From assembly GCA_965213815.1 (NCBI GenBank), contig OZ243917.1, positions 1,694,385 through 1,758,384 of the forward strand: a stretch of 64,000 nucleotides of DNA. The letters are read 5' to 3'. Under the pieces are notes generated by a model, which saw nothing but the letters and a program-made list of their open reading frames with translations, made no database searches and was not told the origin of the DNA. Shown piece after piece: positions 9,992 to 35,870 of this stretch. This DNA is from Alphaproteobacteria bacterium (GTDB lineage: Bacteria > Pseudomonadota > Alphaproteobacteria > SP197). The translations under genes were made by a program, and so were the position numbers. Position 1 is the stretch's first letter; each line of letters begins with the position of its first letter.

Positions 9992-10063
9992 CATGTGACG
10001 TGGCCGGTGTTGCGTGGGGGAGGGTGGTGTCTGTAGTCTCCTTGGGATCGTGAAACCTGAAGG

Positions 10064-10864
10064 GTGAGTTGCCAAGTGGACAGTCTGGAGGGGGCCTTTG
10101 CGGAAACGGAGGCGGCGGCTGACGTGGCGGTGAAGGCGGCGTCACGGGTGCTTTCTCAGGCGCGGGCCATGGTCAAGGCGGCGCAGACGGGGAACATCGC
10201 CGCCATCAGGCGCACCGGACAGAACCTGGACGAGGCGGTGGGCAAACTGATCGAGGAGGCCGAGGAGGCCAGCGAGAGCTGGACCTGGGATGAGGAGGAG
10301 GAGCGCACGTACTTCGAGACGCGGTTCGTGGCGGAGTTCAGGGCCGCGGCCGACGAGAAGGGGCTCAAGCTTCATGAACGCGACGGGTTGCTGATGTGCT
10401 ATCCGTCGATCCTGCGGGTGTTGGCGGGCGATCGCGCCGTCCGGGTGGACCGCAAGAAGGTTTCGACGGTGCGTCCCTCATGGCTGGTGGATCTGCTTCT
10501 GAAGGAGCAGCAGAAGACCGCGAACTTCCAGTCGGCGCGCTTCCTGGAATCGCTCTATGCTGTTTATCGCGACGTCACGAGCGAGGGGCAAAAGGATCTG
10601 GTCAGCGGGCGCGTGGTGCCGCTGATGAGACTGTATCGGCTGATGACGGCGCTACCGGGGGCGGCGCGGGAGTATGGACCGGGCGACTTTGCGCGGGATC
10701 TCTACATTCTTGACTCCGAGGGACCGCACCGCACGAAGAACGGTGCCGAGGTCTCCTTTCCGTCGTCGACGGGAACGAAAGGGCGAAAGTCCGAGATCTT
10801 CAACTTCGTCGGACCGGACGGCAACAGCGCCGAATACTACGGCATCCTCTTCTCGAAGAACTGA
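10064..10864 (+). CDS. Hypothetical protein (helical N-terminus), first gene of four-gene ATPase/helicase operon
   Basis: 266-aa ORF, 3 bp upstream of the next gene; no family recognised. Confidence 0.75.
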   Translation: MSCQVDSLEGAFAETEAAADVAVKAASRVLSQARAMVKAAQTGNIAAIRRTGQNLDEAVGKLIEEAEEASESWTWDEEEERTYFETRFVAEFRAAADEKGLKLHERDGLLMCYPSILRVLAGDRAVRVDRKKVSTVRPSWLVDLLLKEQQKTANFQSARFLESLYAVYRDVTSEGQKDLVSGRVVPLMRLYRLMTALPGAAREYGPGDFARDLYILDSEGPHRTKNGAEVSFPSSTGTKGRKSEIFNFVGPDGNSAEYYGILFSKN

Positions 10865-10867
10865 CGG

Positions 10868-11806
10868 ATGACGGGCACGATCACGATCGATCGCTGGCTC
10901 GATGTCGTCGAGTGCGAGTACCTGTTGTCGCTGGTTGCCGACGGCGGTGCGGCCGTCAAGTTCGTCATGGCGGGAGAGAAGGTGGCGACGCTTGGGGCGG
11001 CGCTGGATGAGCGTTGCCGGGAAAGCGGGTATGTGTTCGTCACGGTCGATGCGGCCAGATGCCGTGTCCACATGCCCCAGGACATCTTCTTTGCCCTGGC
11101 GTCTGCTGTGGACTGGCCTGAGCTGGCGCGCCGGGTCACCTTGCGCATCCTGGGCGAAAGGGGCTTTGGCATCGAGGGCATCGATCCGGCTGAAACGGGC
11201 GATGTCGTCGGCCAGGTGGCGACAAGGAGCGCCCTGGCGCCAGCTGAAGTGCTCTCGGAGCTGAGGCCCGTTCTCTACGAGAGGGTGCGGCGGAATGCGG
11301 ACATGGTCCGGGCCTTTCGCTTTGCCATGACCCATCTCTGCCTCATGACGGGGAGGGACTCTCCCGATGCTCTCGTCGACTGGCTGACGGGAGCGAGCAC
11401 GCGCATCGCCAATGTCCGGCACTTCGGGGTCGATACGCCGATCAACCGGACCACCGCGCGCTACTTCATCGAATCGGCCCTCTACTGGATCCGTATTGCC
11501 GGCCATGCCGGCACGGTCATCCTCATCGACAATGCACGGGTCGCCCTGGCGCGCAATCCGCGCGACGGCCTGCGCTACTACACGAGGGCGATGACCGTGG
11601 ATCACTACGAGGTGCTGCGCGAGTTCATCGACAACACGGACCGCTTGCAGGCAACACTGCTGGTGGTGGCGACGGACGAGATGTTCGTGGACGAGAATTC
11701 ACCGAGAGGCTGGGGCATCTACAGTGCTCTCCGCACCAGGGTGATGGACGATGTCCGCGACCGCCATGCCGTCAATCCGGTCGCCGCTCTGGTCAGGCTT
11801 TCCTGA
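10868..11806 (+). CDS. BrxD/DUF2791-like P-loop protein with degenerate Walker motifs
   Basis: GGAAVKFV occupies the position of the BrxD Walker A lead-in but GKT/S is absent; Walker B region reads ILIDN; YEVLREFID and GIYSALRTR resemble DUF2791. Confidence 0.65.
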   Translation: MTGTITIDRWLDVVECEYLLSLVADGGAAVKFVMAGEKVATLGAALDERCRESGYVFVTVDAARCRVHMPQDIFFALASAVDWPELARRVTLRILGERGFGIEGIDPAETGDVVGQVATRSALAPAEVLSELRPVLYERVRRNADMVRAFRFAMTHLCLMTGRDSPDALVDWLTGASTRIANVRHFGVDTPINRTTARYFIESALYWIRIAGHAGTVILIDNARVALARNPRDGLRYYTRAMTVDHYEVLREFIDNTDRLQATLLVVATDEMFVDENSPRGWGIYSALRTRVMDDVRDRHAVNPVAALVRLS

Positions 11807-13053
11807 TGGCGCGCGAAGCAACCGGTGGCCTCGATGCCCGGATGGCGGTGGAGGCCCTGCGCAACGGTGTCCCCAACAGGGCGGCGGTGAGCGAACTGGG
11901 CTGCAACCAGCCGGCCGTGGAGACCCGTTTTCGGGAGACCCTCGATGCGGCGGCGGGCAGCATGCTTGTCTCCGGCGACTTCGGAACGGGCAAGTCCCAC
12001 CTCCTGCAGCACCTCGAACACCTCGCACTCTCGAGTGGGTACGTCTGCTCGAGGGTATCGATCAGCAAGGAAACGCCGTTCCATGATCTGGGAAAGGTGT
12101 TCGCCTCAGCCATGGAAAACGGCCGGACACCCGATGACCGGGGCCGCTTCATCGAAAAGTTGTGCCATAGGATCGACTTTTCTTCCCATGCATATGGCGC
12201 CTTTTCCGCGTGGGCCGATGGCGAGGCCTCCCGTGGCGCCATGAGCCACCTCTTTCCGGCGAGCCTGTGTGTCTACGAAAAGCTCGGTGATGACGCGTTG
12301 CGAGCGGACATCGAGTCCTTCTGGGCCGGCGACAGGATTCTGATCGGCAGGATCAAGGGCGGACTGAGCGAGGTTGGCGAGAAAGGTACCTACAGCTTCA
12401 AGGCGCCGAAGGCGGCCGACCTGCCGCCCCAGCGGTTGCGGTTCATGGTGGAGCTGATCCGCTGCGCCGGCTTTCGCGGATGGGTCGTGCTCCTCGACGA
12501 GCTCGAACTGATCGGATCCTATTCCATCCTGCAGCGCGGCCGGGCCTACGCCGAAATCGCCCGCTGGATGGGCCGTGCCCGCGAAGAGACCTATCCCGGC
12601 CTTGTCGTCTTGGGCGCCGTGACGTCCGACTTCGCCTCCGCCATCATCAGTCCCGATGGTCAGCGCAAGGACAGGGATTATGTTCCCCCCAGGCTGGAAC
12701 AGAGTGTGCGCTATCGCGACATTGCGAGCCGCGCGGTGACCGGCATGCGCCTGCTCGAACGAGAGTGCGTGGCGCTGGCGGTTCCGAGCCACGACGATGT
12801 TGAGACCACAATGGAATCCCTGCGCCGCCTTTATGGCGAGGCCTATGGCTGGGAGCCGCCACCATCGCTGACGAGGTCAGGGGGTGCGGGGTTCATGGGA
12901 CGCATGCGCTACAAGGTTCGGGCCGCCATCAACGAATGGGACCTCATGCGCCTTGGGATCGCGGACCTTCCCGATACGGAGTTCGTGTCGTTCGAGAACG
13001 CTTATGACGAGGACACCCTGGGGTCCGGCGACGCTCCTGCCGATCCGGCATAG
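11806..13053 (+). CDS. BrxD/DUF2791-like ATPase
   Basis: VEALRNGVP N-terminus, Walker A GDFGTGKS, Walker B VVLLDELE; TGATG overlap with the previous gene. Confidence 0.8.
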   Translation: MAREATGGLDARMAVEALRNGVPNRAAVSELGCNQPAVETRFRETLDAAAGSMLVSGDFGTGKSHLLQHLEHLALSSGYVCSRVSISKETPFHDLGKVFASAMENGRTPDDRGRFIEKLCHRIDFSSHAYGAFSAWADGEASRGAMSHLFPASLCVYEKLGDDALRADIESFWAGDRILIGRIKGGLSEVGEKGTYSFKAPKAADLPPQRLRFMVELIRCAGFRGWVVLLDELELIGSYSILQRGRAYAEIARWMGRAREETYPGLVVLGAVTSDFASAIISPDGQRKDRDYVPPRLEQSVRYRDIASRAVTGMRLLERECVALAVPSHDDVETTMESLRRLYGEAYGWEPPPSLTRSGGAGFMGRMRYKVRAAINEWDLMRLGIADLPDTEFVSFENAYDEDTLGSGDAPADPA

Positions 13054-13058
13054 GCGCC

Positions 13059-15101
13059 GTGCCCATTCCCGGCGGAGGCAGGAGTAGCGACACACTGGCA
13101 CCCTCCGTCGCGTGGTTCCGGATCATCGTGGACCCGACCGGTGAAGGGGTGCTGGCAGGACTGTTCGAAGCGACGCCGGAAGGCGAGCCCCTGGGGTTCA
13201 GCTTCGCCCGGGTATCGCGCCACGAGGGCGACTGGAACGACCTCATGGTGTCCCTGTGTCATGCCCTCTTCGGGGCCACCGCCACCATTCCTTCGCTGCT
13301 CATCGTCTCCTCGGAGGACGGACCGCCCATCTTCCTTGATGACCTCGGTCTTGCCATACCCTGTTGCTGGATCGTGCCTCCGGAGTGCCGCGTCAGCCGT
13401 GAAAATGGATGGCTGCAGTGGGTGACGGATCCGCCGGGCATTCCCTCTCTTGCCGACACGCTCCTGGGCGACATCGCGGACGGGGACGAACCGTTCGAGC
13501 CTCTGGAGAGGGTGACGAAGGCTCTCCTGGAAGCCTATGGAGATATCCGGATCGAGGCCACTGGCAGTATCGAGGGCATGGTTGCGATGATGTCCCTGAC
13601 GCCCCGTGCCATCGAGAGCTGGAGAGAGATGTTCCGTCAGCGGGGCGCTGCCACCATGTCGTCGGCTCCGGAGACGCCACAGGCGCATGGCCTGGCCGAG
13701 AGACTGTGGATGGTGCTGTCTCAAAGGGCCGGGTCCGCTTCCGGTCTCCCTGAAGGCGGACTGGCGTGGTCCGGTGATCTGATGCCATTCCAGCGTGCCG
13801 GCGTCGAGGCCCTGATCACGACGGACCGGTTGCTGCTGTCGGATGACATGGGTCTGGGCAAGACCATCCAGGCCATCGCGGCATTGAGAGTCCTCAAGGC
13901 GAAGGGAGATATCAGGTCGTCTCTCGTGGTCGCTCCGGCGGGCGTTCTGGACCAGTGGCGGCGGGAGATCGAACGCTGGGCGCCGGAGTTGAGTGCCATC
14001 ATCGTGCGTGGCTCGGCCGACGACCGGATATGGCAGTGGCGGGCACGCAAGGATGTTCTTCTCGTCAGTTACGATGTGCTACGCATGGATGCAGATGTCC
14101 TTCGTGATCTTGGACCGGTTCGAAGGACCTGGGATGTGGTGATTCTCGACGAAGCCCAGAAGATCAAGAATCGCAACCCGACGAGTGATGCGGCCAAGGA
14201 TCTGCCCAGAGTACGGTCATGGGCGCTGACGGGCACACCCATCGAGAACAACGAGGATGAGCTGGCTTCGATCCTGGAGTTTGTCGATCACGAGGTTCGT
14301 CTTCGTCCGGGCGCGTCGTTGTTGAAGCGCCACAGCGAACTCCAGCTGCGGCGCCGCAAGGCGGATGTGCTCGATGACCTTCCGCCGAAGCTGGAGACCA
14401 GGATCAGGATCCCGCTCGGGCCCCAGCAGAGAAAGAGCTATGATCAGGCCGAAAGCGAAGGTGTCGTCTTCCTGAGATCGCTGGGCCACGAGGTGACGAT
14501 CCGGCACATTCTGGAACTGCTCACGCGCCTCAAGCAGATCTGCAATGCTGATCCCAGGACGGGAGCCTCCAGCAAACTCGACGACATCCATGACAAGATG
14601 CTGAAGCTGACCGCCCAGGGTCACAAGGCGCTGATCTTCTCGCAGTACACAAACGATGTCTCGGGCGTGGCCGCCGCGGCGCAACGCCTGCACGAGTTTC
14701 AGCCACTCTGCCTGACAGGAACCATGCCGATTGACCAACGCACCGAGATCATCGAGACCTTCAGGGCGAGCGAGCGGCACAAGGCGCTCATCATTTCGTT
14801 GCGGGCCGGAGGCCTTGGTCTCAACCTGCAGGAAGCATCCTACGTGTTCCATCTCGACCGCTGGTGGAATCCCGCCGTGGAACGCCAGGCCGAGGACAGG
14901 AGCCATCGCATGGGACAGACGGTCAAGGTCAATGTGATCAAGTACACGTGCGAGGACACGATCGAGGAGCGTATCGACACCATCCTCCAGCAAAAGCAGG
15001 CCCTGTTCGACGATCTGATCGATGACGTATCCCTCGATCTGTCGACACGCCTCAATCGTGCAGAGCTCATGGGCCTCTTCGGTCTCGACGAGGCCGGCTG
15101 A
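13059..15101 (+). CDS. SNF2-family helicase with uncharacterised N-terminal domain
   Basis: DDMGLGKT, DEAQ, LTGTPIEN, LIFSQY, SLRAGGLGLNL, DRWWNPAVERQAEDRSHRMGQ. Confidence 0.92.
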   Translation: MPIPGGGRSSDTLAPSVAWFRIIVDPTGEGVLAGLFEATPEGEPLGFSFARVSRHEGDWNDLMVSLCHALFGATATIPSLLIVSSEDGPPIFLDDLGLAIPCCWIVPPECRVSRENGWLQWVTDPPGIPSLADTLLGDIADGDEPFEPLERVTKALLEAYGDIRIEATGSIEGMVAMMSLTPRAIESWREMFRQRGAATMSSAPETPQAHGLAERLWMVLSQRAGSASGLPEGGLAWSGDLMPFQRAGVEALITTDRLLLSDDMGLGKTIQAIAALRVLKAKGDIRSSLVVAPAGVLDQWRREIERWAPELSAIIVRGSADDRIWQWRARKDVLLVSYDVLRMDADVLRDLGPVRRTWDVVILDEAQKIKNRNPTSDAAKDLPRVRSWALTGTPIENNEDELASILEFVDHEVRLRPGASLLKRHSELQLRRRKADVLDDLPPKLETRIRIPLGPQQRKSYDQAESEGVVFLRSLGHEVTIRHILELLTRLKQICNADPRTGASSKLDDIHDKMLKLTAQGHKALIFSQYTNDVSGVAAAAQRLHEFQPLCLTGTMPIDQRTEIIETFRASERHKALIISLRAGGLGLNLQEASYVFHLDRWWNPAVERQAEDRSHRMGQTVKVNVIKYTCEDTIEERIDTILQQKQALFDDLIDDVSLDLSTRLNRAELMGLFGLDEAG

Positions 15102-15434
15102 GGTCCCCTTGTGCACTGCTCTGCTTCGCCTGTTCCAGGGCGTGGTGGCTTGGTGCGCCCGGGCTACGCAGGGTCCTTGCTGTTGGTGGCGGACATCACG
15201 ATCCCCAGACAGGACTGGAAAACCTCCCGTTTTAGCGCCGACTGTCCCTCTCTGCGTAGACGCCCACCGTTTCCCGGGATGCGGTGATCATCTGGATCCC
15301 CGCCTTCCTTCCCGTCGAAGGCACTGTTGGTGTCGTGGAAGACGGCAAGATTGGCCTCGGCGGCAATGCCTCACTGACACACGCAGCAGGCAGCCCCGGG
15401 AATTCGGCACCGCGCCCGGCATGTTGGCCGCTGC

Positions 15435-15850
15435 ATGACCGACACAACGGTGATTGACGTTGAACCGGGAGAAACGCTCTCCGGAATCACAGATCGCTAT
15501 GACGTCAGCGTGGAGGCATTGCTGCGATGGAACCGTATCAATGATCCTGACGTCTTGCTGGCTGGACAGCAAGTCATCATTCACGGATCTGGAGATGCTG
15601 ACTCTCTTGCATCCGAGTGGGCGGCCCAGGTGGCATCTGGCCCGATCATGTCAGATGCTGTTGCCTTGGGCATGATCTCAATCGTGGTCGTTCTGCTGCT
15701 GGTTGGCCTGGGACGCGCACTTTCAACCCGTACGTCTCGCACCGTATCGCCTTTTCGAAACCGCCCGGGCGTACTCGCCGGGAAGGCGTGGGTCATCGAT
15801 GGAGACAGCATCCGTGTATCAGGACAGGAAGTGAGGTTCGCCGGCCTCGA
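15435..15850 (+). pseudogene. LysM-TM-thermonuclease (SNase) gene truncated by insertion
   Basis: LysM (VEPGETLSGI..RYDVSVEALLRWNRI), hydrophobic TM, then VIDGDSIRV..VRFAGLD, breaking before the expected APE. Confidence 0.65.
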
Positions 15851-16302
15851 TATCGGTGGCGGAATCAAAGCGCGGGATACTGGCGGTTAGCCGCGCTTTT
15901 GGGGGTGTTGAGCGTTCTTTCCCTCTTGTCGGGTCCTATTTCCCTCTTGTCGTCATCCTCTTGTTGCAATCCTATTGTCGAGTCCGCCGCCGGCGCGCGC
16001 GCCGGGCCTTGCGCCGGGCGCTGGCAGCCGTGTTCCCTGACGCCAGCGGAGAGGCTGGCTCGGCGCTCGCGATCATGAGGGCTGCGCCCCGGGCGCGGCG
16101 GCCGGTGGTGGCCGTCTTGCGCCCTGTGGCGCGGGCCTGGCGGGGGTGGCACAGTGTTATGGAAAGAAGAAGCGATGCGGTGCCGGCTCCAATTTGCGAC
16201 GGAAGCCCGGCACCGCACCTGAGCGAACCGGTTGTGTGGCCGGCTTCCCGAGGACTATCGGACAGTTGAGCGTTCAGGTCCACACCGCTTTCGAGAAGCC
16301 GG

Positions 16303-18152: not shown

Positions 18153-18719
18153 TTACGCGAGCGCCTGGCGGATGCAGCGCGTCATGGCGGCGTGATCGCC
18201 CGCATTGGAGCGGCGCGAGGCGTCCAGCCAAGCGGCGCGATTGATGCGCGTGAGGTCGATGGCGTGGCCAGCGAGCGCGGCAAGCTGCTTCAAGTACTGG
18301 AGCTGCGTGCGACCGTTGCCCTCGCGGAATGGGTGAACGTGGTTGACGTCGCCCAGGACCGGACCCGCGCCCTCGGCAAACCCGTCCGGCCTCGATCCCC
18401 GGAAATACCCCGCCGCTGCGATACGGCGGTGAATGTCCGCCATGCCGGCCACAATGAACCGTCTCGGCTGGAATCGGCTCCCGCCCTTGGTGATTTCGAC
18501 GGTGCGAATTTCGCCCGCCCACCCATAGACGTCCTGGAACAGATGGCGGTGGATCGTCATCAGGTGGGCAAGATCGAAATCGCCCGCGGGCATGGGCTCG
18601 AGAAGGCGCTGGGCGACGAGCTCGCGCTCTGCCGCCTCCAGCGCCGGGGCGTCCCGGATGTCCAGCCTGTTGCGGAGAACGGTGTAGTCAGGCGGATAGC
18701 AGTAGTCGCGGTCGCTCAT
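18153..18719 (-). CDS. Fic domain protein (VbhT/FicT-like)
   Basis: YCYPP..VLRNRL, HPFREGNGRTQL; ATGA overlap with the upstream small gene. Confidence 0.9.
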   Translation of the reverse strand: MSDRDYCYPPDYTVLRNRLDIRDAPALEAAERELVAQRLLEPMPAGDFDLAHLMTIHRHLFQDVYGWAGEIRTVEITKGGSRFQPRRFIVAGMADIHRRIAAAGYFRGSRPDGFAEGAGPVLGDVNHVHPFREGNGRTQLQYLKQLAALAGHAIDLTRINRAAWLDASRRSNAGDHAAMTRCIRQALA

Positions 18720-25746: not shown

Positions 25747-26379
25747 TCACGCGCCGCGAATGGGGGAGGCAGGGAACCATCGTCGAAGTGTGTTGCGCAG
25801 TTCCCGGAACGCGGGATCATTGCATGTGTTGAGGCCGACACTTCGAGCAAGATTCATGAATGTTGCTGCCCTCGGACGACCGTTCTGCTCCCTCATTGCT
25901 TGCCTCAAGGCCGATTTCGGATCCGGCGGCTTGGCTTTGTCGACAGGCCATAGTTGGTGTTTGTGCAGCCAGCCCCGGAGTTCTTCGATCCCTTCGTTCC
26001 ACCCGAGGATCGTGCCCACGTGCGGGGACGTGGACCACACCCAGATCTCCAGTTCGGGTTCGATCACGATTGCCTTCGACCTGTTCTCCCACCCGTTGCA
26101 GCGCAGGTCCTCTTCCACTGCCTCCTGGATGTGCTGCCGATCCGCCCCCTCGTCTCCACTCCCAGCCTTGTCGAACACCACCAGGGCGTGGTGGTGGTCA
26201 CTTGCGTAGCTGCGCGCGGCTGATCCCGCCTGGCGGCGGCACCCCGGGTCCCTTTGCTGATGCCTCATGATCGTGAACTTGACGTCCCGTATCCCGAGTG
26301 CCGCTTGTCGTTGGGTCAACAGACCTTGCATTGTCGCCTCGATATCGGCGTCCGCCACGAGTATCCACAGGTCTTTCAC
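25747..26379 (-). CDS. DUF4276/TOPRIM-like partner protein (resembles MAD4)
   Basis: LVADADIE, RDPGC, VVFDKAGSG, IEPELEIWVW; 4-bp overlap with the ATPase. Confidence 0.65.
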   Translation of the reverse strand: MKDLWILVADADIEATMQGLLTQRQAALGIRDVKFTIMRHQQRDPGCRRQAGSAARSYASDHHHALVVFDKAGSGDEGADRQHIQEAVEEDLRCNGWENRSKAIVIEPELEIWVWSTSPHVGTILGWNEGIEELRGWLHKHQLWPVDKAKPPDPKSALRQAMREQNGRPRAATFMNLARSVGLNTCNDPAFRELRNTLRRWFPASPIRGA

Positions 26380-27620
26380 GACAGGATGTCAGCCGCCCAG
26401 AACACGGTGTCGTCCACCGATGTCCGCCAGTCACGCAACCGCGGATGTTCGTTGCCGGGAACGATCACCGTCCCCCTGTTCTGATCGTGGCCGAAACACA
26501 GGACCTGGTCCAGATCGACGCAGCGCAGCAGCGTCGGTGAGTGGGACGCGACGAAGACCTGTGCGCCGCAAACCGACGACAGGGCCTGGCAAGCATACTC
26601 GATGGCCATCGGATGGATCCCATTCTCAGGCTCCTCCAGAAGCCAGGCCACTGGTGACGCCCGAAGGTGGGGTATCACGGTCAGGGCAAGCAGCCGCAGC
26701 GTGCCCTCGGAAACGCTCCAGGACGGCACTTCGACACCGGCGCGTCTGACCATCAGGTAGGCGTGGCGGTCATCCTCGCGGTGGACGATTCTGACATCCT
26801 CAAGGTCCGGCAGCGCGAAGCGCACGTGCTCGAACCACAGCCCCCACTCATGAGGGTCCGATTTCAACCTCTCCAGCACACGGGGCAGATTGCCACCATC
26901 ATCCGCTAGTCGTCCGCCATCGTCGCCGTTCGGACTCGACGCTTGCCTGAGTTTCCGGCTGTCCAACTGGAGGCGCTGCATGCCGTCACGCTTGAGCGCT
27001 TCCGTGACTCGCAGCGAACGAGGGAAGTGCATTTCCCATGTATCACTGAGCGAGAGTCCGTCCAGCGCTGACAGGATGCCGATCGCGCTCTCGTCGGGGT
27101 CGCCAAAGTTGTCGAGCCGGGGCCCATTCATGCTCTCGGAGCGGTACCATGTGCCGTCGCCATGCTCGCTCCGGCCGAAGATCTGTTCAGGCCTGCGGTC
27201 GGATGCACTGACAATCGAATCGGAACGGGCGCTTGCCTGGAACTCCTCGCCCGTGAGGCGCCCAAGGTATCCGTTCTCGTGCGTCACCTTCACGCCCTCG
27301 TCGGATTCCTCGACCCGCAGCTCGTAGCGCAGTGCGTCGTCATCCATCGTGAACTCGGCCGCCAGCTCGAAGCCGGGTGAGGTGGCCGGGCGGCCCCACA
27401 CCAGATCCTGGAAGTTGCGCGTGCGCTTCCCCACCGCCCGCACCAGTCCCTGCTTCACGTAATCCGTCAGAAACGCGATCGCATCCAGCAACGTACTCTT
27501 GCCGCTCCCGTTCGGACCGACGAGAACGTAGAAGTTGCCGTCGAGCCGAAGGTCGACGTGCCGCAGGCTGCGATAGTTGCGGGCCTGGATCGCCCTGAGC
27601 GTTACAGCGGGTTCTTTCAC
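26376..27620 (-). CDS. ABC-type AAA_21 ATPase (resembles MAD3/AriA)
   Basis: NYRSL, GPNGSGKST, SEGT signature, LLEEPENGIHP, ASHSP; start placed at GTG 27620. Confidence 0.88.
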   Translation of the reverse strand: MKEPAVTLRAIQARNYRSLRHVDLRLDGNFYVLVGPNGSGKSTLLDAIAFLTDYVKQGLVRAVGKRTRNFQDLVWGRPATSPGFELAAEFTMDDDALRYELRVEESDEGVKVTHENGYLGRLTGEEFQASARSDSIVSASDRRPEQIFGRSEHGDGTWYRSESMNGPRLDNFGDPDESAIGILSALDGLSLSDTWEMHFPRSLRVTEALKRDGMQRLQLDSRKLRQASSPNGDDGGRLADDGGNLPRVLERLKSDPHEWGLWFEHVRFALPDLEDVRIVHREDDRHAYLMVRRAGVEVPSWSVSEGTLRLLALTVIPHLRASPVAWLLEEPENGIHPMAIEYACQALSSVCGAQVFVASHSPTLLRCVDLDQVLCFGHDQNRGTVIVPGNEHPRLRDWRTSVDDTVFWAADILS

Positions 27621-27988
27621 GTGTGCCTCGTTCGTGACCCGACACCGTCTGCCAGAGAGGCCCCCCGCTTCCAGGGGCCCGTGCGACAGCCCTGTCCGAC
27701 ATCTCTCCGGATCGTCGTGCATCGCGGGCGCCACCGCAACGCAAGAGTGGGCATCTGATGTGTTCCTGTGCCCATGGTGATCGGCACTTGGTCTGCGAAA
27801 GCCACGGAACTCACCGGCTTGGCGGCAAGCCGCCAAGCCACCGTACCAGAGGCAGATCTCATACCATACGCACTGACACAAGGCACAGCCGCAATGCCCC
27901 CTGAACAATGGCTCCCGGACCGTACCGGCGTTGCATCGAACAGCGCCGTGGTGTCTGATGGGCATCCGGCTTCATGTGCGGTCAAGGG

Positions 27989-28656
27989 TGAGTGTGGCTC
28001 AGTCGTCGATGACGATGGTGGCGCGCGGAGTGTATCCGGTTTGGCGACAGGCTTCGAGGAGAGGAGCGGCCTGGTCATTGAGGAAGCCTGACAGGATGAC
28101 CGTGGAGGTGTTGAGGGCGGGGGTCATCGCGATGAGGAGACGGGTGCGAAGGCGCGCAAGGTGTCGGTGCAGACAAGGAGGACGCGCGGTGAGGTTGTTC
28201 CTGGCGATCAGATGACGGGCGAAAGCCAGAGCGCCGGTGTCATTGTCGCCGGCAACGATCGCGCTGTCCCACAGATGGGTCGCGGCGATCGAGAGAATGG
28301 CCGACCCGCAGCACGTGTCGAGGACGGCAGGAGCCTTCAGGCAGTCGGCGGTGCTCAGGTGCTCGCCGATCCCGAAGGCTGTCCCGGCCCCGATGCGGAC
28401 GAGGTGGGTGCCCGGGGCTACCGGGCCCGATAGCAAGGGGCGCGAAGACCTTGGCGTTCTTCGCCACCCAGTCCCTGTGGTTGAGGCAGGGCGTGACGCC
28501 AAGGCCTGTCTCGACGTGCCGGCGCACCTCTTCGGCCTCCTCGCGGCTGGCAAGGACGGCGGTGACACGGGTGCCGAAGAGGGAGAGCGCCAGGGGCTCG
28601 CATTTCTCGAGAGGGGCACGGGCCCCGGCGTGAGCCGCCTCGAGTTGCCAGGTCAT
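27989..28656 (-). pseudogene. prmA: Decayed second copy of prmA
   Basis: MTWQLEA start, FGIGEHLST, DTCCGSAILSIAA; colinear with 32849-33616 but carries deletions and frameshifts. Confidence 0.85.
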
Positions 28657-28705
28657 GCCGCCATCCTGTGCGCGGACTTGCCGGGGCGCTTATCGGACTT
28701 CTGGA

Positions 28706-28810
28706 TCATGCCGGGGTGACGAAGGCCGCCATGATCTTCTTGCGGCCGGCCTTGAGGACGCGTCCATGGCCGAACTTCTCATGCAAGATGCGGACGTCGG
28801 CTCCGGCGGC
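28706..28810 (-). pseudogene. Second copy of the uvrD 3' end
   Basis: DVRILHEKFGHGRVLK/AGRKKIMAAFVTPA*, homologous to 33663-33804 with a 36-nt deletion. Confidence 0.85.
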
Positions 28811-31585: not shown

Positions 31586-32398
31586 TCACGCTCCCTCGAA
31601 GCTTTCCTCGACCGCCTGCGATGGCAGGAGCACGCGCCAGGGCTTGATGAGCAGCGCATCGCCGGGCTTCGCGCCCAGCGCATAATGCTTCGAGCGCGGA
31701 CGCAGGGCGCGCAAACGATCGAGAGCGCTTTCGGGAACGCCCAGGGCTGATTGCCGCCGTTCCAGCCACCAGCCGGCCAGCGAGGCGAGCGAGCGGATGC
31801 CAAGCAGTTCGACATAATCGGCGACCTTTTCCGGATCGAGGTAGCGCACGAGATCGAGCGACTGCAGCACCTCTTCGGCGCCGCCCGCGATGTCCGGCCG
31901 GTGCAGCACGTCGACCGCGGTGCGCTCGATGGCCGTGACCCTTGTGGACACGCCCAGGCGGTCCATGGCAACGGTCAGATAGTCTGTCCTGCCCGCATCA
32001 AGCAGCGCCTTGGGTGGGTTGACGAACCGACACGGGCCAAAGAGCAAATCGGCAAGCTCGGGACGTCCCCGGCTCACGAGTTGGACCTCGTTGAACTCGG
32101 AGTCGGCCGCGCCGTGCAGCTCCAGGGCCGAGTGATATCCCAGCACGCCGTCGGGGCGCAGCTTGCTCGCGGCCAGGAACCGGTCCACTGTCAGGCGCTC
32201 TGCCGACAGGTGTGCCGGCACCGCGGCGAACACCTCCCGGCTCAGCCGCTTGATGTTGCCAGCCTTCAGGTGATGCTTGAGCAGGCTGGTGACGCCCGCC
32301 GAGTTCGCCGGACGGCCGAAAGCGGCAGCGTACTCGGCCCGGGTGAACACCGGGTGGGCCGAGAGAAAGTGCGACGTCTTGTGCGGTCGTGCCGGCAT
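31586..32398 (-). CDS. AbiEi-family type IV antitoxin
   Basis: HPVFT..E wHTH, GYHSALELHG, VTAIERTAVD; TGAATG coupling to the toxin. Confidence 0.82.
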   Translation of the reverse strand: MPARPHKTSHFLSAHPVFTRAEYAAAFGRPANSAGVTSLLKHHLKAGNIKRLSREVFAAVPAHLSAERLTVDRFLAASKLRPDGVLGYHSALELHGAADSEFNEVQLVSRGRPELADLLFGPCRFVNPPKALLDAGRTDYLTVAMDRLGVSTRVTAIERTAVDVLHRPDIAGGAEEVLQSLDLVRYLDPEKVADYVELLGIRSLASLAGWWLERRQSALGVPESALDRLRALRPRSKHYALGAKPGDALLIKPWRVLLPSQAVEESFEGA

Positions 32399-32413
32399 AG
32401 TTATCTTATATTC

Positions 32414-32450
32414 TGCACGGAAATGGGTATTATATATACCTTTCGATGCA
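32414..32450. promoter_or_regulatory. Imperfect inverted repeat upstream of abiEi
   Basis: TGCACGGAAATGGGTAT-TATAT-ATACCTTTCGATGCA. Confidence 0.45.
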
Positions 32451-32815
32451 TGATTATCAACCACCGGCATTCACGACCTCCCTCACTCCCCCGCCTCCGG
32501 TTCCAAACGAGCTGCGCCCGGTCGCCCTCGTCACAGATAACATCATCGTTCTCGCGTCCGGCGACCAGGCTTGCCCGCCGCGAGGGGTATGAGTTGTTTT
32601 TGAATCCGCTGTGGCAGAGCTTCCCGTCCGGTCTTCCGGGCACATCGACGGCCTGCGGAGCGGAGTTCATGCGCTACGGCACTGGGATGGAGGAGTGAGG
32701 CTGCTCGGATGTCGAGGCCGGAGAAGGCTCTGCGGCCCCAATCAAGCGACGCCTCGGGGTTCGGGGGACTCCGACACCGGAACCCCGACGGATTCGAGCC
32801 GTCCCCGTTATCGGT

Positions 32816-33616
32816 TCAACTGGCCATGGAGGGGGCATTGCAGGTCAGCGTGAGTGTGGCCCAGTCTTCCATGATGATGGTGGCGCGCGGTGCGTACCGG
32901 GCCTGGCGATAGGCGTCGAGGATGGGGCCGGACTGGTGTTCGAGAAAGCCGGAGAGGATGACGGTGGCGGCGTTGACGGCGGGGGCCATGTCGATGAGGG
33001 GGCGGGCCAGGATGTTGGCGATGACGAGGTCGAAGGGCGTAGAGGTCAAGGCACTGAAGGCGTTTGCGCAAACGAGGTGGATGCGGCCGGCGATGTCGTT
33101 TGCCGCGATCTGGCCTGCGGCAAAGGAAAGGGCCAGGGGATCGTTGTCGACGGCGACGATGTCGCAGTCCCACAGGCGGGCGGCGGCAAGCGAGAGAATG
33201 GCCGACCCGCATCCCATGTCGAGGACGGTTCGGGGCGGTGTGTCGAGCGCGGCAAGGGCCCGCAGGCACCCGGCGGTGCTCGGGTGTTCGCCGGTCCCGA
33301 AACCGGCCCCGGCCTTCATGCGGATGAGGATCGTGCGGTCGTCTGCCGGGTGGTCGCCATGGACGATGGTGAAAGGTCCGATGACAAGGGGCGGAAAGGA
33401 GCGGATGTTCTCCGTGACCCAGTCCCTGTCGGTGAGTTCCCGGAGGCAGGGCGTGACGCCAAGATGTGCCGCGACGTGACGACGCGCCCGTTCAGCCTCC
33501 TCGCGGCTGGCGAAGAGGGCCTGTACGTGTGTGCCGAAGAGGGAAAGGGCCAGGGGCGCAAGTTCCTCGAGGAGGTCGTGTGCGCCCCGGTGCTCCGCCT
33601 CGAGCTGCCAGGTCAT
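32816..33616 (-). CDS. prmA: 50S ribosomal protein L11 methyltransferase
   Basis: GFGTGEHPST, LDMGCGSAILS, ANILARPL. Confidence 0.9.
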   Translation of the reverse strand: MTWQLEAEHRGAHDLLEELAPLALSLFGTHVQALFASREEAERARRHVAAHLGVTPCLRELTDRDWVTENIRSFPPLVIGPFTIVHGDHPADDRTILIRMKAGAGFGTGEHPSTAGCLRALAALDTPPRTVLDMGCGSAILSLAAARLWDCDIVAVDNDPLALSFAAGQIAANDIAGRIHLVCANAFSALTSTPFDLVIANILARPLIDMAPAVNAATVILSGFLEHQSGPILDAYRQARYAPRATIIMEDWATLTLTCNAPSMAS

Positions 33617-33662
33617 GCCGCCATGGTCTCCTGTGCGCAGCCTTGCCGGGGGACGCTCAGGG

Positions 33663-35870
33663 TCATGCAGGGGTAACGAAGGCCGCCATGATCTTCTTGC
33701 GGCCGGCCTTGTCGAAGGCGATGTCGAGCTTGTCGCCGTCGGCCTTGAGGACACGGCCATAGCCGAATTTCTCGTGGAAGATGCGGGTGTCGGGCTGCGG
33801 CGCCGTCCCGGGGTTGGGCGTGGCGTGCGGGGCAGGTGAGGGAAACTGCTTCTGGCGGCGGGTGAGGGTGCGCGAGAAATGGCTGTCGGTGACGGCCTGG
33901 CCGAATTCGGACTGATCGCGGTAGCCGATGAGCGGGGACTGGTCCAGGTGGATGTGCTCGGTGGGCAGTTCGCCAAGGAAGCGCGACGGCGGGTTGGACA
34001 TGGTCTGGTTGAAGACCCGCCGGTTGGCCGCATGGAAGATGGCGACGCGCCGGCGGGCCCGGGTGAGGGCGACATAGGCGAGGCGGCGTTCCTCCTCGAG
34101 GGCCTTGCTGCCGTTCTCCTCGAGGGCGCGGCGATGGGGAAAGAGGTCCTCCTCCCAGCCGGGCAGGATGACGGTGTCGAATTCCAGTCCCTTGGCCGCA
34201 TGGAGAGTCATGATGCTGATCATGTCGCCGGCGCTGGCGGCATCGCCCTCCGCGACGAGGCTGACATGATCGAGGAACTCGCCGAGGTCGTCGAATTCGG
34301 CCAGGGCACCGACGAGTTCCCTCAGGTTCTCGAGCCTGGCCGGGGCCTGGATGGACTTGTCCTTCTGCCACATCTCTGTATAGCCCGATTCATCGAGAAG
34401 GACGGCGGCCACCTCCGCCGGGGACGTGCGGCTGGCCTCGGCGCGCCAGCGCTCGATGTTGTCGATGAAGGAGGAGAGGGCCCGCCGGCGCGCCGGCGCC
34501 ACGGTGGTGCTGCTGACGACATGGCGCGCGGCGGCAAGCAGGCTGGTGCGTTCCCGTCGCGCATGGTCGTGGAGAGGGGCCAGAGATTTCTCGCCCAGTC
34601 CTCGCCTTGGAAGATTGATGATCCTCTGGAAGGCAAGATCGTCGTCGTCCTGGCGCACCAGACGCAGATAGGCAACCGCATCGCGGATTTCGCGGCGCTC
34701 GTAGAACCTCAGGCCGCCGATGATGCGGTAGGGCACACCCAGGGTGATGAAGCGTTCCTCGAAATGACGCGTCTGGTGGCCGGCCCGCACCAGCACCGCC
34801 ATCTCGTTCAGCAGATGCTTCCTTCTCTGCAGTTCCTCGACCATGGCGCCCACGGCGCGGGCCTCGTCCTCGCCGCTCCACACACCGGTGATGGCGATGG
34901 GCTCCCCGGCGTCGGTATCGCTGCCGGTCCACAGGGTCTTGCCGAGCCGGTCGCGGTTGTGGGCGATCAGGGCGGAAGCCGCCGCAAGGATGCGGGGCGT
35001 CGAGCGGTAGTTGCGCTCGAGGCGTACGATGGTGGCGCCGGGAAAGTCGGTTTCGAACTTGAGGATGTTGCCGACCTCGGCGCCGCGCCAGCCGTAGATC
35101 GACTGATCGTCGTCGCCCACACAGCAGATGTTGCCCGTTCCTCGGGCGAGCAGGCGCAGCCACAGGTACTGGATCGCGTTGGTGTCCTGATACTCGTCGA
35201 CGAGGATGTAGCGGAACCGCCTGTGCCAGGTGTCGAGAACGTCTGGATGATCGAGCAGCAGGCGGTAGGGCTTGAGGAGCAGGTCCCCGAAATCAGCAGC
35301 ATTGAGGGATTCGAGACGCTCCTGATAGGCGCGGTAGAGCACCTGGCCCTTGCCCCGGGCGTAGGCCTGCGCCGCCTCCCCGGGCACCTGGTCGGGGGTC
35401 CATCCCCGGTCCTTCCATTTCTGGATCAGGAACGAGAGCATACGTGGAGGCCAGCGCTTCTCGTCGATGTTGGCCGCCTCGACGAGTTCGCGGGCCAGGC
35501 GGATCTGATCGTCGGTATCGATGATTGTGAACCCCGGCTTGAGGCCCGCGAGTTCCGCGTGGCGGCGCAGCATGCGCGCACCGATCCCGTGAAAGGTGCC
35601 GATCCACAGGCCGGAGGTGGGCTGTTCGATGAGGGCGCTCACCCGTTCGGCCATCTCGCCGGCGGCCTTGTTGGTGAAGGTCACTGCGAGAATCTGCCCT
35701 GGCCAGGCGCCCCCGGTGGCGATGATGTGGGCAAGACGCACCGTCAGGACGCGGGTCTTTCCGGTGCCGGCGCCGGCGAGCACGAGGACCGGCCCGTCAA
35801 GGGCCTCGACCGCCTCGCGCTGCGCCTCGTTGAGGCCGTCGAACAGCGGGTTTGGAGAAGCGTCCTGCAT
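33663..35870 (-). CDS. uvrD: ATP-dependent DNA helicase UvrD/PcrA
   Basis: AGAGTGKT, VDEYQD, LERNYRS, TLHAAKGLEF, EERRLAYVALTRA. Confidence 0.96.
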   Translation of the reverse strand: MQDASPNPLFDGLNEAQREAVEALDGPVLVLAGAGTGKTRVLTVRLAHIIATGGAWPGQILAVTFTNKAAGEMAERVSALIEQPTSGLWIGTFHGIGARMLRRHAELAGLKPGFTIIDTDDQIRLARELVEAANIDEKRWPPRMLSFLIQKWKDRGWTPDQVPGEAAQAYARGKGQVLYRAYQERLESLNAADFGDLLLKPYRLLLDHPDVLDTWHRRFRYILVDEYQDTNAIQYLWLRLLARGTGNICCVGDDDQSIYGWRGAEVGNILKFETDFPGATIVRLERNYRSTPRILAAASALIAHNRDRLGKTLWTGSDTDAGEPIAITGVWSGEDEARAVGAMVEELQRRKHLLNEMAVLVRAGHQTRHFEERFITLGVPYRIIGGLRFYERREIRDAVAYLRLVRQDDDDLAFQRIINLPRRGLGEKSLAPLHDHARRERTSLLAAARHVVSSTTVAPARRRALSSFIDNIERWRAEASRTSPAEVAAVLLDESGYTEMWQKDKSIQAPARLENLRELVGALAEFDDLGEFLDHVSLVAEGDAASAGDMISIMTLHAAKGLEFDTVILPGWEEDLFPHRRALEENGSKALEEERRLAYVALTRARRRVAIFHAANRRVFNQTMSNPPSRFLGELPTEHIHLDQSPLIGYRDQSEFGQAVTDSHFSRTLTRRQKQFPSPAPHATPNPGTAPQPDTRIFHEKFGYGRVLKADGDKLDIAFDKAGRKKIMAAFVTPA

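Follow-up and report, generated by a model that had tools for sequence, protein, structure and literature searches.

What does a compact, transferable cassette of four genes do, when its parts resemble those of several defence systems and its arrangement corresponds to none of them? The cassette in question lies at positions 10064-15101 of a 64,000-nt stretch of contig OZ243917.1 (the window), taken from a genome that is complete in a single contig (G000). Its four open reading frames (ORFs), g1 to g4, are co-oriented on the plus strand with intergenic gaps of 3, -1 and 5 bp; the ORF coordinates agree in this with an earlier reading made from the DNA letters alone (hereafter the sequence-only reading). 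The operon is genuine, conserved and mobile, and it is probably a conflict system of the ATPase-plus-helicase kind, whose role we infer to be defensive: with slightly better than even confidence, we take it for an autonomous, mobile operon whose most likely task is to guard its host against invading DNA, phage or other, while the host's own DNA stays unmarked. The cassette and its parts are as follows, in window coordinates:

10004..15105, plus strand: whole mobile unit (leader and g1-g4), delimited by blastn against sister species
10064..10864, plus strand: g1, protein of no recognised family, 266 aa
10868..11806, plus strand: g2, BrxD-like ATPase without Walker A, 312 aa
11806..13053, plus strand: g3, BrxD-like AAA+ ATPase with intact motifs, 415 aa
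13059..15101, plus strand: g4, SNF2 helicase, whole gene, 680 aa
13059..13778, plus strand: N-terminal domain of g4 (residues ~1-240), RNase H-like fold as modelled with AlphaFold2 and matched with Foldseek
13779..15101, plus strand: SNF2 motor of g4 (SNF2-rel_dom and Helicase_C, Pfam)

A conserved and mobile operon

A profile of g3 homologues, run over species-representative genomes, identifies 80 related loci, all of them in metagenome-assembled genomes (MAGs). By tblastn, g1 is found at 79 of these loci, g2 and g3 at all 80, and g4 at 76, and the order is always g1-g2-g3-g4; the four-gene synteny on which the sequence-only reading had made its case depend is thus conserved elsewhere. At 67 of the 79 loci with g1, this gene overlaps g2 by 1 or 4 nt. 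The four-gene arrangement is far beyond chance, and the genes show both conserved order and translational coupling.

The related loci span at least eight phyla, under the labels Dehalococcoidia, Caldilineaceae, Binatia, Latescibacterota, Acidimicrobiia, Vicinamibacterales, Terriglobia, Longimicrobiales, Thermodesulfobacteriota, and alpha- and gammaproteobacteria; several of the bin names come from sponge metagenomes. The g3 tree groups sequences by phylum above chance, yet it requires extra transfers, with Acidobacteria and one Gemmatimonadota sequence nested inside a proteobacterial clade. The distribution is patchy, multi-site and cross-phylum. Two cassettes carry an extra 347-aa gene, of no Pfam family, between g3 and g4 (L077:5289-6332 and L080:8224-9267); they are nearly identical to each other and come from MAGs labelled Pseudomonadales and Latescibacterota, which reflects either a recent cross-phylum transfer or mis-binning.

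Within the genus of the window's genome, g3 occurs in 8 of 23 species, at 63-84% identity, and it is absent from 18 of 18 examined genomes outside the genus. In window coordinates, blastn alignments to sister species extend over 10004-15105 (G013), 10000-15104 (G005) and (8470-)15101 (G010), at 75-81% identity; the flanks in G013 are unrelated to those of the window, and in G004 the left flank is retained as far as 10003, with other cargo in place of the cassette. As the homology to sister species ends at 10000/10004 on one side and at 15101/15105 on the other, the cassette moves as one unit. A 138-aa ORF that shares 80 nt with the 3' end of g4, and the gene for a LysM-domain protein that follows at 15435-15890 (region 15022-15890), are outside the conserved unit, since this stops at 15105. 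A scan for promoters and terminators returned nothing informative.

The cassette occupies at least three genomic sites within the genus: in the window, G005 and G010 it has a glycosyltransferase gene on one side and uvrD-prmA on the other, and in G013, G002 and G011 it lies elsewhere. The first of these sites is a slot that extends in the window over 10004-32843 (22.8 kb), with the GT2 glycosyltransferase gene ending at 10003 and uvrD-prmA on the other side. In G005 and G010 it holds, besides the cassette, 2.7 kb and 3.6 kb, respectively; in G004 it measures 8.1 kb (Fic and unknowns) and in G013 15 kb (HipA, TnpB and unknowns). In the window, the cassette and uvrD are separated by a further 17.7 kb of cargo, which include genes for CBASS, Fic, an ABC ATPase, a DUF4143 ATPase and AbiEi; across the sister species the cargo includes Fic, HipA, TnpB, NYN-LOTUS, a YhgA-like transposase and many unknowns. 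Across the genus, the slot between the GT2 gene and uvrD behaves as a hotspot of variable cargo. Several sister species (G013, G015, G004 and G006) carry direct copies of the 3' end of uvrD, 100-160 nt long, at 0.3-1.5 kb upstream of the complete gene; the window shows the same duplication (27989-28810 against 32849-33804), and the 3' end of uvrD looks like a repeatedly used integration site.

On a distant branch of g1, the cassette takes a reduced form. In two isolates of Aurantimonas sp. (L101 and L102; GCA_036016915.1 and GCA_036016855.1) it consists of g1, a 740-aa fusion of g2 and g3, and a headless SNF2 protein of 456 aa, and it has Tn3-family transposase genes on both sides and a resolvase 100 bp upstream. 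Other loci of this branch have g1-g2-g3 with a 465-aa SNF2 protein, either beside a resolvase and a transposase or amid metabolic genes; in a Stellaceae MAG, both a resolvase and a DDE transposase adjoin this version. One decayed copy was found, on the same branch.

Such contexts bring up the alternative that survives best, namely that the cassette serves a mobile element and not the host, by exclusion of competing elements or by maintenance or addiction for its carrier. The Tn3-family transposase genes and resolvase in Aurantimonas, the resolvase and transposase in the Stellaceae MAG and the precise movement of the unit are consistent with this, as are the toxin genes PIN, HigB and HipA, which are frequent close neighbours. 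The cassette itself, however, encodes no integrase, transposase or toxin-like protein, most of the 80 loci have no mobile-element gene next to them, and plasmid and phage collections give no match; furthermore, a role of this kind overlaps with defence in practice, inter-element competition using the same machinery. We regard it as unlikely.

The ATPase pair, the signature gene and the SNF2 protein

By their sequences, g2 and g3 are members of the PF10923 superfamily (BrxC_BrxD, formerly DUF2791) of ORC/Cdc6-type AAA+ ATPases: relative to a Pfam cut-off of 22.2 bits, g2 scores 41.8 bits (E = 8.6e-11) and g3 64.9 bits (E = 8e-18), and no other protein of the window's genome exceeds the cut-off for PF10923. 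g2 also matches the BrxD models of PADLOC (5e-10) and NCBIfam (1.3e-9) over residues 20-311, and g3 matches the PADLOC BrxD model at 2.7e-15; both fall far short of the 350 bits required for the NCBIfam BrxD equivalog NF033438 (56 bits for g3, 37.7 for g2). g2 has no GxxxxGK[ST] motif, and the D-E of its Walker B motif is replaced by D-N, the same state being seen across 61 orthologues. In g3, Walker A (GDFGTGKSH) and Walker B (VVLLDELE) are intact; the Walker A residues G60, G62, K63 and S64 and the Walker B residues D231 and E232 are invariant in 18 diverse homologues. From this motif state, g2 is predicted to be catalytically dead and g3 to be active, in line with the degenerate and active BrxD-like proteins proposed in the sequence-only reading.

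The paralogy of g2 and g3 follows from their both matching BrxD models, as direct comparison yields no match by BLASTP and a weak one by hhalign (E = 0.0025, probability 12%, spanning Walker B and the next strand). Among PDB sequences, g3 has only insignificant P-loop matches, to TnsC, a DnaI-like protein and BrxC. The relation between the two proteins is clearer in the Aurantimonas fusion, which aligns to g2 over residues 8-311 (31% identity, E = 9e-42) and to g3 over residues 331-704 (39% identity, E = 3e-69). A search with this fusion has about 50 clusters of ~740 aa among the matches listed, and a second group of ~774-aa proteins, mainly from Nitrospira, which align over their full length. 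Since g2 and g3 recur as a fusion of ~740 aa in many lineages, the dead and the live ATPase probably work as one unit.

The Nitrospira-type loci (L111, L112 and L113, with identical neighbours in three assemblies) are related to the cassette but distinct from it; they encode a 298-aa unknown protein and, in tandem, two double-length BrxD-like proteins of 760 and 775 aa, with no helicase.

g1 is the cassette's signature gene. The ORF stands as it was annotated in the sequence-only reading, but as its start a GTG at 10076, favoured by the consensus of the homologues and by an upstream GAAGG, is likelier and would give a protein of 262 aa. Run against 1.84 billion representatives, the g1 profile retrieves 858 clusters (50% identity), 639 of them at E<=1e-10, with members that are all about 255-280 aa long. 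g1 has no significant match in Pfam, PADLOC or NCBIfam, and its sequence has none in the PDB. DUF7714 was considered as its family and rejected, the weak match in 1 of 78 members being noise; the remaining matches of g1 are coiled-coil noise. The AlphaFold2 model, at a predicted local distance difference test score (pLDDT) of 90, has a long N-terminal helical hairpin (residues ~8-70) followed by an alpha/beta domain; its fold has no match in the PDB (best E 0.84), and BFVD contains none that resembles the whole chain.

g4 is, by sequence, a translocase/helicase of the SNF2 family within superfamily 2 (SF2), as the sequence-only reading had proposed. From about residue 240 onwards it matches SNF2-rel_dom (PF00176; 3e-47, 161.5 bits) and Helicase_C (9e-21, 74.7 bits), and the motifs GLGKT, DEAQ, TGTP and QAEDRSHRMGQ are readable, with motifs I, II and VI intact. 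Preceding this motor is a domain that AlphaFold2 models (residues 1-245, pLDDT 84) around a beta-beta-beta-alpha-beta core. In a Foldseek search of the PDB, E. coli endonuclease V (EndoV; 4xpu) ranks first, with E = 1.8e-4 and a probability of 1.00, followed by the PIWI domains of Argonautes and of SPARDA. Conserved acidic residues occupy positions 25 (83%), 86 (83%), 87 (99%), 147 (99%) and 162 (84%); in the model, residue 25 comes after beta-1 and residues 86/87 after beta-4, an order that recalls RNase H-like nucleases. The model thus suggests that the fold is RNase H-like, with EndoV and PIWI as its nearest matches, and that the domain is a putative nuclease or nucleic-acid-binding head. 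The sequences indicate a much higher rate of evolution for this head than for the motor: across 67 loci, the two have median identities of 29% and 69%, respectively, to the copy in the window. The modelled fold is what the head would share with EndoV and with the PIWI domains of prokaryotic Argonautes (SPARDA, short pAgo); unlike Argonautes, g4 has no MID or PAZ domain and its head is fused to a motor, and a catalytic equivalence is putative.

A head that resembles EndoV raises a second alternative, an accessory module of DNA repair or of the replication fork, in which the SNF2 protein would remodel stalled forks, the head would incise damaged (e.g. deaminated) DNA and the AAA+ pair would act as loader. 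Its best fold match is indeed a repair enzyme; SNF2 motors include repair proteins and fork remodellers; and the neighbours of the related loci are mostly housekeeping genes, dnaN at one locus. Repair genes, however, are usually vertically inherited and stably placed, whereas the cassette is patchy within the genus, occupies several insertion sites, has crossed phyla, is carried in Tn3-type contexts and occurs in decayed copies; its head evolves fast, and it shares a hotspot with CBASS and AbiE. A role in repair is, to our judgement, rather improbable.

The third alternative is a regulator of transcription or of the nucleoid, that is, a RapA-like or pilus-regulating Snf2 helicase with AAA+ cofactors. 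It draws on the two best NCBIfam models for g4, the pilus expression-regulating Snf2 family helicase (234 bits, cut-off 1100) and the SCO1167/SCO6262 family helicase (256 bits, cut-off 1200). Both of these matches cover the motor only, and g4 misses every NCBIfam equivalog cut-off widely; no conserved target gene lies nearby, and the distribution is like that of a mobile accessory element. Such a regulator is very improbable.

Relation to known defence systems

No model of PADLOC v2, Pfam or NCBIfam, which are the libraries that were checked, names the four-gene cassette, and no published description was found of a cassette that joins DUF2791 with SNF2, nor of one called 'BrxD-like'; the claim of the sequence-only reading that the architecture matches no named system is borne out in these libraries. 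Three points were overlooked in that reading: the EndoV/PIWI-like domain at the N-terminus of g4, the fusion of g2 with g3 in other lineages, and the assignment of BrxD and BrxHI to type 2 BREX. Individual parts do resemble components of described systems, and these have to be considered in turn.

The closest parallel is type 2 BREX (Pgl), to which BrxD and BrxHI belong and where BrxD has been proposed as the loader or activator of its linked helicase (PMC12839542). What the cassette has in common with the BrxD-BrxHI pair is a standalone PF10923 ATPase of the ORC/Cdc6 type tightly linked to an SF2 helicase. It differs in having two ATPase paralogues, one of them apparently dead, and in having g1; moreover, the BrxHI helicase is Lhr/Ski2-like, whereas g4 is SNF2 with an EndoV-like head, and the PADLOC BrxHI model is a secondary match to it, at 112 bits. 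A search of the complete genome for PglZ (PF08665) gives no match, while control genomes did match, and a Pfam scan of the ORFs at positions 1-30 kb of the window finds no PglX, BrxC/PglY or PglW beside the cassette. BREX is ruled out on these grounds: PglZ is absent, as are a nearby methylase and BrxC, the ATPases score below the BrxD cut-off, and g4 is of SNF2 type. The BREX-related 'BR systems', which are centred on DUF499 and carry methyltransferases (PMC12839542), are likewise different from the cassette.

Shango and the cassette are alike in plan: both are small and modification-free, and combine a BrxD-related ATPase and a helicase with an accessory protein. SngA, however, has a TerB domain, and g1 has neither this domain nor a match to SngA; in Pfam searches, TerB is matched by 0 of 78 g1 homologues. 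The absence of PglZ, PglX, methylase and TerB genes, as read from the DNA alone, is supported. The match of g3 to the PADLOC SngB model is weak (E = 4.1e-5, 20.8 bits) and covers residues 47-93, which is the P-loop only. SngC is not among the best 25 of the 47 PADLOC families that match g4, these 25 being SNF2-type or other helicase models. The cassette differs further in its additional, apparently dead ATPase and in the SNF2 type of its helicase. With no TerB in g1 and a SngB match confined to the P-loop, Shango is largely ruled out as well.

The SNF2 motor, finally, is shared with ZorD of Zorya, DrmD of DISARM, and DpdE and DpdJ of Dpd; the motor of g4 matches ZorD and DpdE best, at 254 and 218 bits in PADLOC, these top matches covering the motor only. 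ZorD, too, joins an SNF2 motor to a nuclease domain; the nuclease-like domain of g4 is N-terminal and by its model of the EndoV/PIWI type, not Mrr-like. In NCBIfam, g4 scores 141 bits against a cut-off of 1500 for ZorD, 80 against 950 and 70 against 610 for DrmD, and 65 against 500 for DpdE. None of g1-g3 matches ZorA, ZorB or ZorC in PADLOC, and the flanks contain neither DrmABC/MII nor other Dpd partner genes. Matches that are limited to the motor and far below the cut-offs rule out Zorya, DISARM and Dpd.

A remnant or satellite of a known system, either a type 2 BREX stripped down to its BrxD-BrxHI dyad or a Shango variant, is suggested by the BrxD matches of g2 and g3, the weak SngB match of g3 and the shared ATPase-plus-helicase logic (PMC12839542), but is largely refuted by a genome without PglZ, a g3 that scores 56 of 350 bits for BrxD, a helicase that is SNF2 and not Lhr/Ski2-like, 78 g1 homologues without TerB, an SngB match to the P-loop only, and four genes that recur alone at 80 loci.

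The case for defence and its meaning

The defence reading rests on several lines. The best library matches of the parts are defence proteins (BrxD, ZorD, DpdE and DrmD); the operon is conserved, moves as a unit, has a g3 tree that crosses phyla, occurs in mobile contexts and in decayed or partial copies, and occupies a hotspot in the genus; and to this are added the g2-g3 fusions, the fast-evolving EndoV/PIWI-like head and the proposal that BrxD is a loader (PMC12839542).

The surroundings of the cassette in the window include a CD-NTase, Cap2, Cap3 (JAB) and a Cap15-like gene, and in addition:

18300-18578, minus strand: Fic domain (domain scan)
26376-27965, minus strand: ABC/AAA_21 ATPase (Pfam)
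31586-32470, minus strand: AbiEi (domain scan)

The island of CBASS, Fic, AbiE and an ABC-ATPase/TOPRIM pair that had been described from the DNA alone is present; the TOPRIM partner of the ABC ATPase gives no Pfam match. The window's genome has 14 Fic-domain ORFs. Ankyrin-repeat proteins are found among the neighbours of related loci, as suits host-associated bacteria.

Several findings weigh against a role in defence, or against parts of it. Around 74 of the related loci, the 147 immediate neighbours fall into 104 Pfam families, mostly housekeeping, with PIN (4), HNH_2 (4) and Uma2 (2) among them; only about 10-12 of the 147 match PADLOC models (including a type IIG restriction-modification enzyme, HNH/type IV enzymes, a reverse transcriptase and PDC candidates), a count for which there is no background set. 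Where gene tables exist, at three loci, the four genes form an islet in metabolic surroundings, with HigB or PIN adjoining. Enrichment in defence genes around the related loci is thus at best modest: the island argument of the sequence-only reading holds within the genus, at the variable hotspot by uvrD; elsewhere the cassette mostly stands alone amid housekeeping genes. Island statistics therefore carry less of the defence reading than do the nature of the parts, the mobility and the hotspot in the genus. A tblastn search of sequenced plasmid and phage collections with g3 gave no match, and g1 offers no functional clue.

The remaining points concern g4. Triads of g1-g2-g3 without the SNF2 gene occur at 4 of the 80 loci (L022, L039, L040 and L071), as well as at L108 and L109; the genomes of the first four have no g4 orthologue elsewhere, and at L039 and L040 one gene appears truncated. 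The head is missing from the 456-466-aa helicases of other branches, and a 160-aa gene that lies between g3 and the helicase in L105 has no detectable relation to it. Where the head is present, its fold matches are modest (TM ~0.3, identity ~10-18%), and two of its acidic positions are conserved at only 83%. As there are loci without the head and loci without the helicase, head and motor cannot be the sole output of the system.

If the cassette is a defence system, it could work as follows. The predicted dead g2 and live g3 would form a heteromer of the BrxD/ORC-Cdc6 type of AAA+ proteins, which, together with g1 as adaptor or sensor, would recognise some feature of foreign or abnormal DNA. 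The heteromer would then use ATP to load g4 or to switch it on; a loader role is suggested by analogy to ORC/Cdc6-MCM, to DnaC-DnaB and to the BrxD-BrxHI dyad. g4 would act as a translocase on double-stranded DNA, and its EndoV/PIWI-like head, where present, may nick or cut the DNA that is being tracked. The physical complex, the nuclease activity of the head and the defensive role itself are all steps that we infer. A more far-reaching version, which we put forward tentatively and consider somewhat doubtful, is that g1 and the live/dead ORC/Cdc6-like pair, separate or fused, constitute the core, for sensing and loading, of an undescribed immune system that is widespread, works independently of modification and deploys a dedicated SNF2 motor. 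In the clade of sponge-symbiont MAGs, this motor would have gained a fast-evolving, EndoV/PIWI-like nuclease head, and foreign DNA would be known by its structure or replication state, not by missing methylation.

Should the cassette prove to be a defence system, it would add a family that current catalogues miss, and one that is common in uncultivated bacteria of at least eight phyla, especially of the kinds binned from sponge metagenomes. The g2-g3 fusions provide a ready-made construct for biochemistry, and the cultured Aurantimonas isolates a host for testing. A dead/live pair of ORC/Cdc6-like ATPases that appears to govern an SNF2 motor parallels both the loading of replication helicases and the unexplained BrxD-BrxHI pair; working out the cassette could thus also explain the function of BrxD.

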